This document shows positions 4,592-6,172 of a DNA stretch of 64,000 bases, in pieces. This stretch comes from an uncultured bacterium (GTDB taxonomy: Bacteria; Babelota; Babeliae; Babelales; Vermiphilaceae). The position numbers were made by a program, and so were the translations under genes. The first letter of the stretch is position 1; every line of letters begins with the position of its first letter. The notes below the pieces were generated by a model. It had not been told where the DNA came from. It ran no database searches and worked only from the letters and a program-made list of their open reading frames with translations. The stretch covers positions 1-64,000 of the forward strand of contig OY970212.1 of assembly GCA_963713925.1 (NCBI GenBank). The letters are read 5' to 3'.

Positions 4592-6172
4592 ATGAACAAA
4601 ATATTCAGTCAAAATATCTTCTTTTTCATCTTACTTTCTCTGTATTCGTATAATATATTCGCTGGATTTCCCGCAGGAACACCGGTTAAAACAACAAGTG
4701 GATATCAGCCAATTGAAACAATCAAATCAGGCCACCATCTTACCTCGTATGATCTAAATGCGGGCTTTATTGAAAATCGAGTAAATTTTTCTTGGGCACA
4801 AGCTACCGACATATGCATTGTTATCCATTATCTTGAAACCGAACTGATTTCAAACGCAAAACAACAGTTTTATCTTCCTGAATCGGCTTCATGGGTTGCG
4901 GCACGTGAGTTAAAGCCAGGCGACAAATTGCTTTCGGCAAAACATGGACATATCGTCATTGATGCAGTTGAACAACTTCCTTTTGCAGGGTTTACTCATT
5001 GTGTACGCTTTGATAATATTCACAATTTTTGTGTATCGCACGATGACATCGTCACGCATAATAGCGCCGGCCTTACATGGAAAATGAGACTCTGGCCCCC
5101 TCCAACTCCTCTTGAAATCGGGCTAGGAGTTCTTTTTACTGTTGGTGCATTTGTTGTGAGAAAAATCATGACCAATTTTGGGGCTCACGAAGATTTACAT
5201 GGACACGATGGTGTTTATCGCGGCAATCAACTTCGTCCAAATAATCCGCCATATCAATACAATCCCCAGACTGATTTTGATAATCCATATGCATATTATC
5301 GCCACAAGCAAGAGACTGAAGGCTATTATAATCCAAATTACGAACATTCTTCATCTTTCCTCAACAACGATGATATTTCTGCTCATAATGAAACGTACAC
5401 AGGGCATCTTCATAATGAAGCTATCGCTCAAAACATGTATCATCAAAATGTGTCTTCAACCCAAAATCTTCCACCCGCGATTAGCATAGAGCCTTCAGTC
5501 AACAACAATGCGTTACAATCGGCTCAAGCTCCCACCCAAACTTCGATTACCACAATATCAGGTCTTAATACTGAAACTACATACTGTCCGACAACAACTC
5601 CTGATCCGGAGATTCGAAAACAGCCACATGGCTGCCCGACCCCGCTTCAATTTGAGCCAATATCGCACACCGGCGGCGATCAATTACCAAAGAAGGATCC
5701 TATCGTTGCCCTTCCAACACCAATTCCTGAAATTGAGAAGACACCTCAAGATTGCTTCCCTCCGATAGTCCAAGACATATCAGATATCGTTATGACAAAA
5801 GACCGGTCCGGCAAAAAGCCGAAAAAACCTAGGATCGAAGACAGCGGCAAAAAACCGTCAGACCCTGATATTTTTAATCCGGAAGATCATCCACATGGTC
5901 AATATATTCCATCGCCGAAACATCATAAACACAGCAAAGGTAATATAAGCAAAGCTCCAAAAGATGGTCAAAAGGCGTTGGATAATTCGATTGAAGTAGA
6001 AGAAGGCTCAACTGAAAGAATAGCTGTAGTCGATGGTGAATTTGTTGTGTTAAAGGAGACGCTAGCAGGGATATACCATGGCTATGCCGTAGATAAGCCA
6101 ACTGAGGAGCAAAAAACTGCTCTGCAAAAAGCGGGGAAACTCACACCTACAGGAAAAATTCCAAAACAATGA
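4592..6172 (+). CDS. secreted polymorphic toxin with N-terminal Hint domain and C-terminal putative nuclease tip
   Basis: signal peptide; Hint GFPAGTPV...VTHN (aa 25-157, nt 4664-5062); hydrophobic segment; Pro/Cys-rich linker; tip with PKH, ALDNS and YHGY motifs; ATGA overlap with next gene. Confidence 0.8.
   Translation: MNKIFSQNIFFFILLSLYSYNIFAGFPAGTPVKTTSGYQPIETIKSGHHLTSYDLNAGFIENRVNFSWAQATDICIVIHYLETELISNAKQQFYLPESASWVAARELKPGDKLLSAKHGHIVIDAVEQLPFAGFTHCVRFDNIHNFCVSHDDIVTHNSAGLTWKMRLWPPPTPLEIGLGVLFTVGAFVVRKIMTNFGAHEDLHGHDGVYRGNQLRPNNPPYQYNPQTDFDNPYAYYRHKQETEGYYNPNYEHSSSFLNNDDISAHNETYTGHLHNEAIAQNMYHQNVSSTQNLPPAISIEPSVNNNALQSAQAPTQTSITTISGLNTETTYCPTTTPDPEIRKQPHGCPTPLQFEPISHTGGDQLPKKDPIVALPTPIPEIEKTPQDCFPPIVQDISDIVMTKDRSGKKPKKPRIEDSGKKPSDPDIFNPEDHPHGQYIPSPKHHKHSKGNISKAPKDGQKALDNSIEVEEGSTERIAVVDGEFVVLKETLAGIYHGYAVDKPTEEQKTALQKAGKLTPTGKIPKQ

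Follow-up and report, generated by a model that had tools for sequence, protein, structure and literature searches.

The stretch of DNA analysed here, 64,000 nucleotides long and referred to below as the window, carries at positions 4592-6172 of its forward strand a predicted toxin gene encoding a protein of 526 amino acids (member 1), in which the sequence gives the order leader, Hint domain, hydrophobic segment, linker and tip. A candidate promoter, TTCACA-17-TAGAGT with a TG extension, lies upstream on the same strand (4526-4554) and is common to paralogous copies, being conserved 5' of them (window 10298-10346; position 74387 of the genome, G000); a promoter consensus scan of the window performs at chance level, with 12 found against 11.8 expected, as does a terminator scan. 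Residues 1-24 (4592-4663) form a predicted Sec signal peptide, recognised by a hydropathy rule and inspection, and the Hint domain extends from Gly25 to Asn157 (4664-5062). The predicted post-cleavage N-terminus (5063-5164) comprises, by hydropathy and modelling, a hydrophobic helix from Ile176 to Val189 followed by Arg-Lys; its best 19-residue hydropathy is 1.67, its uncharged run spans 14 residues (176-189), and it is modelled at low confidence (pLDDT <50), unpacked against the Hint. A low-complexity linker, rich in N, Q, H and Y and then in P and T (5165-5863), leads to the tip (5864-6172). Some 267 residues, hydrophobic helix included, lie between Asn157 and the tip.

The initial annotation placed a Hint domain directly after the predicted leader cleavage site (IFA|GFPAGTPV), with Gly for Cys1, NAKQ for the block-B TxxH motif and an intact terminal THN|S, and all of these features are read in member 1. 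The fold that it proposed is borne out by profile, alignment and model: PT-HINT (PF07591) matches residues 32-149 with E 4.3e-7 and 30.7 bits against a curated cut-off of 27.7, an AlphaFold2 model built on a 33-row alignment has a pLDDT of 94.9, and Foldseek aligns this model to 2lwy (TM 0.89) and 6y75 (TM 0.84), with bacterial intein-like (BIL) domains ranking first and inteins next. The nearest solved sequence is again 2lwy, the BIL4 domain from C. thermocellum (E 2.6e-5), and alignment to it sets its block-B TxxH against NAKQ (88-91), so that Gln91 stands in place of the block-B His; the block-F His and the terminal His-Asn are retained. In Hint chemistry, Cys1 and the block-B His serve the N-terminal junction and His-Asn the C-terminal one (PMC7765530; PMC2807308). 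In one intein cyclisation of the Asn is independent of residue 1 and of the +1 nucleophile, a P1A plus T+1A mutant is reported still to show C-terminal cleavage (PMC2807308), and A-type BIL domains undergo C-terminal cleavage through Asn (PMC7765530).

The tip of member 1 is akin to a CdiA-CT of Cupriavidus taiwanensis (PDB 5T87 chain E; phmmer E 3.7e-8, profile E 1.8e-20, supported by alignment) and to Rickettsia rCRCT-3. Alignment of its relatives reveals an invariant His, Ser and His, a pattern that fits the description of Ntox18, for which Imm42 is a listed immunity family; the tip is likely to be a nuclease and, judged by its residues, possibly kin to Ntox18. Pfam returns zero matches for the member 1 tip, and finds no match of tips to Ntox18 or of immunity proteins to Imm42. 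Overlapping the toxin stop codon on the forward strand is the gene for a predicted cognate immunity protein of 213 amino acids (6169-6810), and the same family follows 13 of the 15 relatives that bear this tip type. The modelled complex of tip and downstream protein scores 0.92, the best of three controls 0.68; contact agreement between runs is at least 91%, as is the partner pLDDT. Of solved pairs, 116 of 157 attain the mark applied to such scores, and of mismatched pairs 2 of 215, counts that are only approximate for the alignments used here. The downstream protein is thus predicted by modelling to bind the tip. It resembles Imm42 in language-model features, a lead only, given the low recognition value of such features, while Pfam gives zero matches for 14 members of its family and solved structures include no relative of it. 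A TROVE/Ro60-like gene (6820-8283) directly follows this immunity gene of a likely RNase toxin, and is not a recurring neighbour of family members in relatives.

Further copies lie in the window and in the genome (1.32 Mb in one contig), which holds four intact family members and one degenerate one. At 10422-10836, on the forward strand, is a pseudogene copy of member 1, consisting of the leader and the first 13 Hint codons followed by an out-of-frame tip that is 71% identical to that of member 1; about 1160 bases have been deleted. It is followed 3' by an intact paralogous immunity gene (10839-11468, forward strand), 63% identical to that at 6169-6810. In this region (10422-11468) an internal deletion has killed the toxin copy and the immunity gene is still intact. 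The copy at G000 74454 has a Hint 99% identical to that of member 1 and an unrelated tip: in bins of 100 bases the two are mostly 95-100% identical at the DNA level as far as 5588, then 81% in the bin 5589-5688 and roughly 50% after it, which on sequence places the tip exchange point near window 5650-5690.

Member 2 (37366-39168, reverse strand) is composed of a leader, a spacer, a Gly1 Hint (38653-39033) that also matches PF07591, a hydrophobic segment, a helical stalk common to 12 relatives and a tip of cluster T6, unrelated to that of member 1. Its predicted immunity gene (36884-37369, reverse strand) belongs to a family that is found after all five relatives with a T6 tip. This otherwise dissimilar toxin had been noted to carry the same two losses, and it does: the Hint reads GFLAGTQI, ALDQ and VHN|M, and members 1 and 2 are related only in the Hint and where the hydrophobic segment begins. 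Other details require correction. The Hint of member 2 does not directly follow the leader, but starts at residue 46, about 25 residues beyond it. The shared motif QxFYLPxxxSWxxAxEL is present in both proteins but sits inside the Hint, as the block-B stretch with the His-to-Gln change, and the hydrophobic segment thought to follow this motif adjoins the His-Asn instead. Solved structures include no relative for the tips of member 2 or of the 74454 copy. A degenerate locus (L003; G000 1206015-1207995) has lost the front of its Hint and its His-Asn, has a frameshifted tip and retains two intact immunity genes, and a lone paralogue of the member 2 immunity gene (L004:2828-3298; G000 614828; 32%) has no toxin tip nearby. 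Two leader-bearing proteins without a Hint (L005:1210-3087 and L006:674-3100; G000 1236210 and 128674), each followed by immunity-like genes, have the tip family of the copies at 74454 and 555946. Since these proteins carry the same tip, a Hint is not required for every toxin.

Across the phylum Babelota (Dependentiae), PF07591 matches 73 of 201 genomes and a family profile made here 88 of 201. The family sample comprises 146 loci, part of some 237 matches, and its 125 distinct hits were reduced to 112 complete domains by dropping 13 that were cut at a locus edge, were split or frameshifted, belonged to a true helicase intein or had an unaligned C-terminus. Among those dropped, one ends in His-Asn (L077), one in His-Asp (L075) and one, the degenerate L003, has lost the pair; the helicase case (L084) is an ordinary intein that has Cys1 and a homing endonuclease and is interrupted by a stop codon or frameshift. 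In the complete domains position 1 is overwhelmingly Gly (96, or 86%), with Ala in eight, Ser in four, Asp in two and Asn and Cys in one each. Block-B position 10 is Gln in 101 and His in five, and TxxH occurs in 0 of 112. The C-terminal side has a different fate: the terminal His-Asn is found in 109 of 112, a conservation that is partly ascertainment since the search profiles reward this pair, and the block-F His in 91 of 112. The +1 residue is Cys, Ser or Thr in only 13 of 112; it is mostly Met, Phe, Ile, Ala or Val, with at least 14 different residues represented.

The region downstream of the Hint ranges from 43 to 728 residues (median 186). His-Asn is invariant in the members with a long C-terminal part (90 of 90), despite overall identities of 20-30%, and is present in 14 of 17 short ones, though kin among them are not independent; His-Asn together with the block-F His is found in 79 of 90 long and 9 of 17 short members, the block-F His being missing in 11 of the 90. 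The 17 short members have at most 115 residues after the Hint, several with nothing but a glycine-rich hydrophobic peptide. Eight tipless proteins (L008, L009, L015, L119, L120, L127, L131 and L134) consist of a Gly1 or Ala1 Hint and a Gly/Ala-rich hydrophobic peptide of 72-111 residues; several tipless members end in GPV, and they are candidates for released pore-forming or glycine-zipper peptides. By the hydropathy rule 101 of 107 family proteins have a leader-like h-region, compared with 18 of 91 ORFs downstream of them; in 88 of 109 the h-region stops no more than 12 residues from position 1. On the other side of the Hint, a hydrophobic Gly/Ala-rich segment of about 35 residues begins at +1: a 19-residue hydropathy of at least 1.4 directly after the Hint is reached by 103 of 109 proteins and by 1 of 80 downstream control windows. 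Just after the segment Lys/Arg (0.13) exceed Asp/Glu (0.04-0.06) family-wide. Searches outside the phylum gave one tip-only match in a single-protein scan of genome contigs and, in the Atlas, generic PT-HINT clusters only, under 0.9. Some family members are already labelled Hint proteins by automated annotation, and NCBIfam yields no family above E 0.008 for 10 proteins.

A control is provided by other Hints found with the family profile, which matched 49,710 representatives, the best 150 of which were examined; the counts below for internal, leader-adjacent and Gly1 Hints refer to these. Among 177 internal Hints, 170 have Cys1 and 171 the block-B His; of 169, 14 are followed by a hydrophobic segment. 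Sixty-six Hints directly follow a leader: Gly1 is found in 48 and Cys1 in 18, and these 18 signal-plus-Hint proteins keep both Cys1 and His and constitute a separate group marked by tandem Hints and Lys+1. It follows that front position alone does not erase Cys1, and the notion that an N-terminal Hint always loses it is rejected; in these sequences it is with the hydrophobic segment that Gly1 goes together. The loss of the block-B His is common but not defining, since 27 of 57 Gly1 domains (lineage given for nine of the 57) keep the His; it is Gly1 that defines the family. When a tree was computed with FastTree after removal of position 1, 163 of the 166 family domains grouped in a single clade that included 1 of 70 Cys1 domains (support 0.88), a result that is partly circular since the profile made here was used to select the domains. 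Taken together, the catalytic loss is one-sided and family-wide and is absent in internal Hints, so that the description of the domain as a C-cleavage-only pro-domain is well supported by inference. A second group of proteins (P0008, P0013, P0020, P0022, P0032, P0033, P0046, P0069 and others) has leader-RGGGG|C1 Hints in three to four tandem copies with full catalytic residues, each ending His-Asn-Lys-Gly (Lys+1), and then a membrane protein part.

The other half of these proteins behaves as expected of polymorphic toxins. The 107 complete proteins fall into 40 tip clusters, in keeping with the variable C-termini expected from the first look at the locus, and 91 have a close downstream ORF on the same strand. 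The suggestion that this ORF encodes immunity gains from covariation as well as from the complex model: pairs with the same tip have a common downstream cluster in 223 of 247 cases, pairs with different tips in 55 of 3848, and shuffles reach at most 38. Pfam matches among 54 tips (at most two per cluster) are to Ntox37, Ntox21, Ntox35, the colicin E3-type Cytotoxic family and EndoU, and those among 45 downstream proteins (at most two per cluster) to CdiI_N and CdiI_ImmP; most of the tips and proteins scanned have no match. Seven of 18 pairs with at least 60% Hint identity lie in different tip clusters, one of them (L008/L009) tipless. Among 275 neighbouring ORFs the recurrent ones are spare immunity genes, in tandem arrays, and orphan tips. 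No conserved export or uptake partner is seen among these ORFs within 0.4-3 kb, and no MafA-like partner or recurring non-immunity neighbour within an upstream reach of 0.4-1.5 kb. To judge by its computable features, namely swapped tips, cognate immunity genes and orphan cassettes, the family is a polymorphic toxin system.

The component parts, Hint, tips and immunity proteins, are of known kinds; the novelty lies in how they are ordered, in the asymmetry of the catalytic residues and in the lineage. PT-HINT and A-type BIL domains (2lwy) share with the family the fold, a Pfam score above cut-off, the terminal His-Asn and the polymorphic-toxin setting, but the family has Gly1, mostly Gln for the block-B His, and a Hint at the front of the mature protein before a hydrophobic segment. 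Canonical pretoxin-HINT domains lie directly before the toxin, an order not matched here; HINT has been described as always placed between pretoxin domains and the nuclease (PMC3113570) or just before the toxin, with the N-terminus occupied by other peptidases and by lineage-specific domains (PMC3482391), and in an umbrella toxin the Hint is at the tip end (PMC11062931). The Neisseria MafB/MafI system is also comparable, having a signal peptide (predicted in the present family), an optional type-A Hint, a short polymorphic tip, downstream immunity and orphan tip cassettes (PMC4524018). However, the Hint of MafB is central (PMC4524018), whereas in the present family it comes first with the hydrophobic segment after it, DUF1020 is lacking (a Pfam scan gives no match to it) and a MafA-like partner is not seen. 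CdiA-CT resembles member 1 in tip sequence, but in member 1 this tip is borne by a 526-residue protein rather than a CdiA filament, and its immunity family is without a solved match.

Inteins provide a further comparison. Class 2 and class 3 inteins likewise have no Cys, Ser or Thr at position 1, and one Gly1 intein has been reported (PMC2807308), but these inteins still splice, whereas the family domains seldom have a nucleophile at +1 and retain almost no N-extein, if any, once the signal peptide is cleaved. Class 2 splicing (Ala1, Cys+1, block-B Thr and His) does not fit Gly1, Ser+1 and NAKQ of member 1. Member 1 has Cys at F4, Thr at G5 and Ser+1, which raised the possibility of class 3 splicing; this is rejected since the WCT triplet is absent from all 112 domains: member 1 has Phe at B12, Trp occurs there in 0 of 112, and Cys at F4 in 4 of 112. 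Engineered C-cleaving intein tags also lack the residue-1 nucleophile and release a fused protein at their C-terminus (PMC7765530); the family differs from them in being natural and phylum-wide, in its range of +1 residues and in that its cleavage is putative.

We infer that the proteins are polymorphic toxins with cognate immunity genes, in which the front Hint cuts after its last Asn and the freed hydrophobic N-terminus engages the target membrane, a reading to which we assign a probability of about 0.55. C-terminal cleavage by the Hint, taken alone, is more probable than this whole chain. The protein would be exported unfolded by Sec, and unfolded export would mean that the Hint folds and fires only once outside. 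The front cut would be made by signal peptidase, which would render Cys1 dispensable. Asn157 would then cyclise and, in the absence of splicing, release residues 158-526. The new hydrophobic N-terminus may insert in the membrane and help the nuclease-like tip to enter the cytoplasm of a competitor, most likely co-infecting kin inside the protist. The model, uninformative in this region, does not indicate shielding of the hydrophobic segment by the Hint.

The chief alternative to insertion into the target membrane, less probable on the whole although the segment could equally well serve in this way, is a stop-transfer or vesicle anchor that holds it in the membrane of the producing cell. In that case the Hint would still remove itself outside the cell, and the tip would remain tethered, cytoplasmic and immunity-bound or on vesicles, with delivery through vesicle or membrane transfer and no self-insertion. 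The 19-residue hydropathy is at least 1.6 in 88 of 109 proteins and basic residues come after the segment, as an anchor would have it, and the single 14-residue uncharged run of member 1 followed by Arg-Lys fits stop-transfer. A degenerate outer membrane is reported in Babeliales (PMC4776705) and one isolate seems to shed vesicles (PMC6561590), both of which are compatible with an anchor. However, 45 of 109 proteins have an uncharged Gly/Ala-rich run of at least 30 residues, which suggests a hairpin more than a lone anchor; a cytoplasm-tethered tip alone leaves the orphan tip cassettes and spare immunity arrays unexplained, and an anchor has no need of a precisely freed +1 N-terminus.

It is less probable still that the Hint no longer has catalytic activity and acts as a constant domain at the N-terminus for folding, anchoring or receptor binding, like MafB-N or the Amoebophilus prodomains. 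Half of the active site is indeed lost, lineage-specific constant domains after the signal peptide have been described (PMC3482391), and the conservation of Gly1 itself indicates that structure alone can fix residues here. Against this, decay is confined to one side of the catalytic apparatus, and the invariance of His-Asn in long members at low overall identity is hard to reconcile with a dead domain. In the two proteins with tandem Gly1 Hints (P0011 and P0109), moreover, His-Asn is found only in the second copy, which adjoins the hydrophobic segment, and is lost in the copy away from it. The same processing directed at the cytosol or mitochondrion of the protist host, with immunity merely shielding the producer, is the least probable reading. 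In its favour, members of the phylum live obligately inside cells, one isolate replicates while enclosed by a host mitochondrion (PMC6561590) and immunity would be needed whatever the target; against it, the tips are of interbacterial-system kinds, and spare immunity genes that have no working toxin (window 10839; G000 614828; the tandem arrays) point to kin attack.

Whether the membrane-engaging toxin represents an undescribed delivery class, in which signal peptidase and then a Gly1 Hint capable of C-cleavage only would work one after the other as a switch thrown after export, baring an N-terminus that inserts into membranes for machine-free poisoning of co-infecting kin within protists, is a more tentative matter, and we put its chances somewhat below even. 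Were it so, bare glycine-zipper peptides would be what the tipless members release, and the Hint would amount to a self-cleaving tag of natural origin that leaves no trace and tolerates nearly any +1 residue. In the available text of two Babelota genome papers (PMC4776705; PMC6561590) the words 'toxin' and 'intein' are absent, and the phylum goes unmentioned in the accessible parts of two Rickettsia papers on the 5T87-like tip. In the literature searched we found no published account of a Hint-first order or of toxins in Babelota, though architecture tables in supplements could list such proteins. The family would be the first interbacterial weapon system described for an entire phylum whose members are reduced and parasitise protists as obligate intracellular bacteria, and would give Hint autoprocessing a new place and use, at the front end and one-sided. 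It would also offer a direct way to test how small nuclease toxins exported through Sec get across membranes when no dedicated machine serves them. More than 100 natural Hint domains predicted to perform C-cleavage only, with diverse +1 residues, could serve as self-removing tags. Elsewhere in the window, positions 32600-36681 hold five or six genes of unknown family on the same strand, several with an MKKLLYF start, which are likely to be secreted paralogues.
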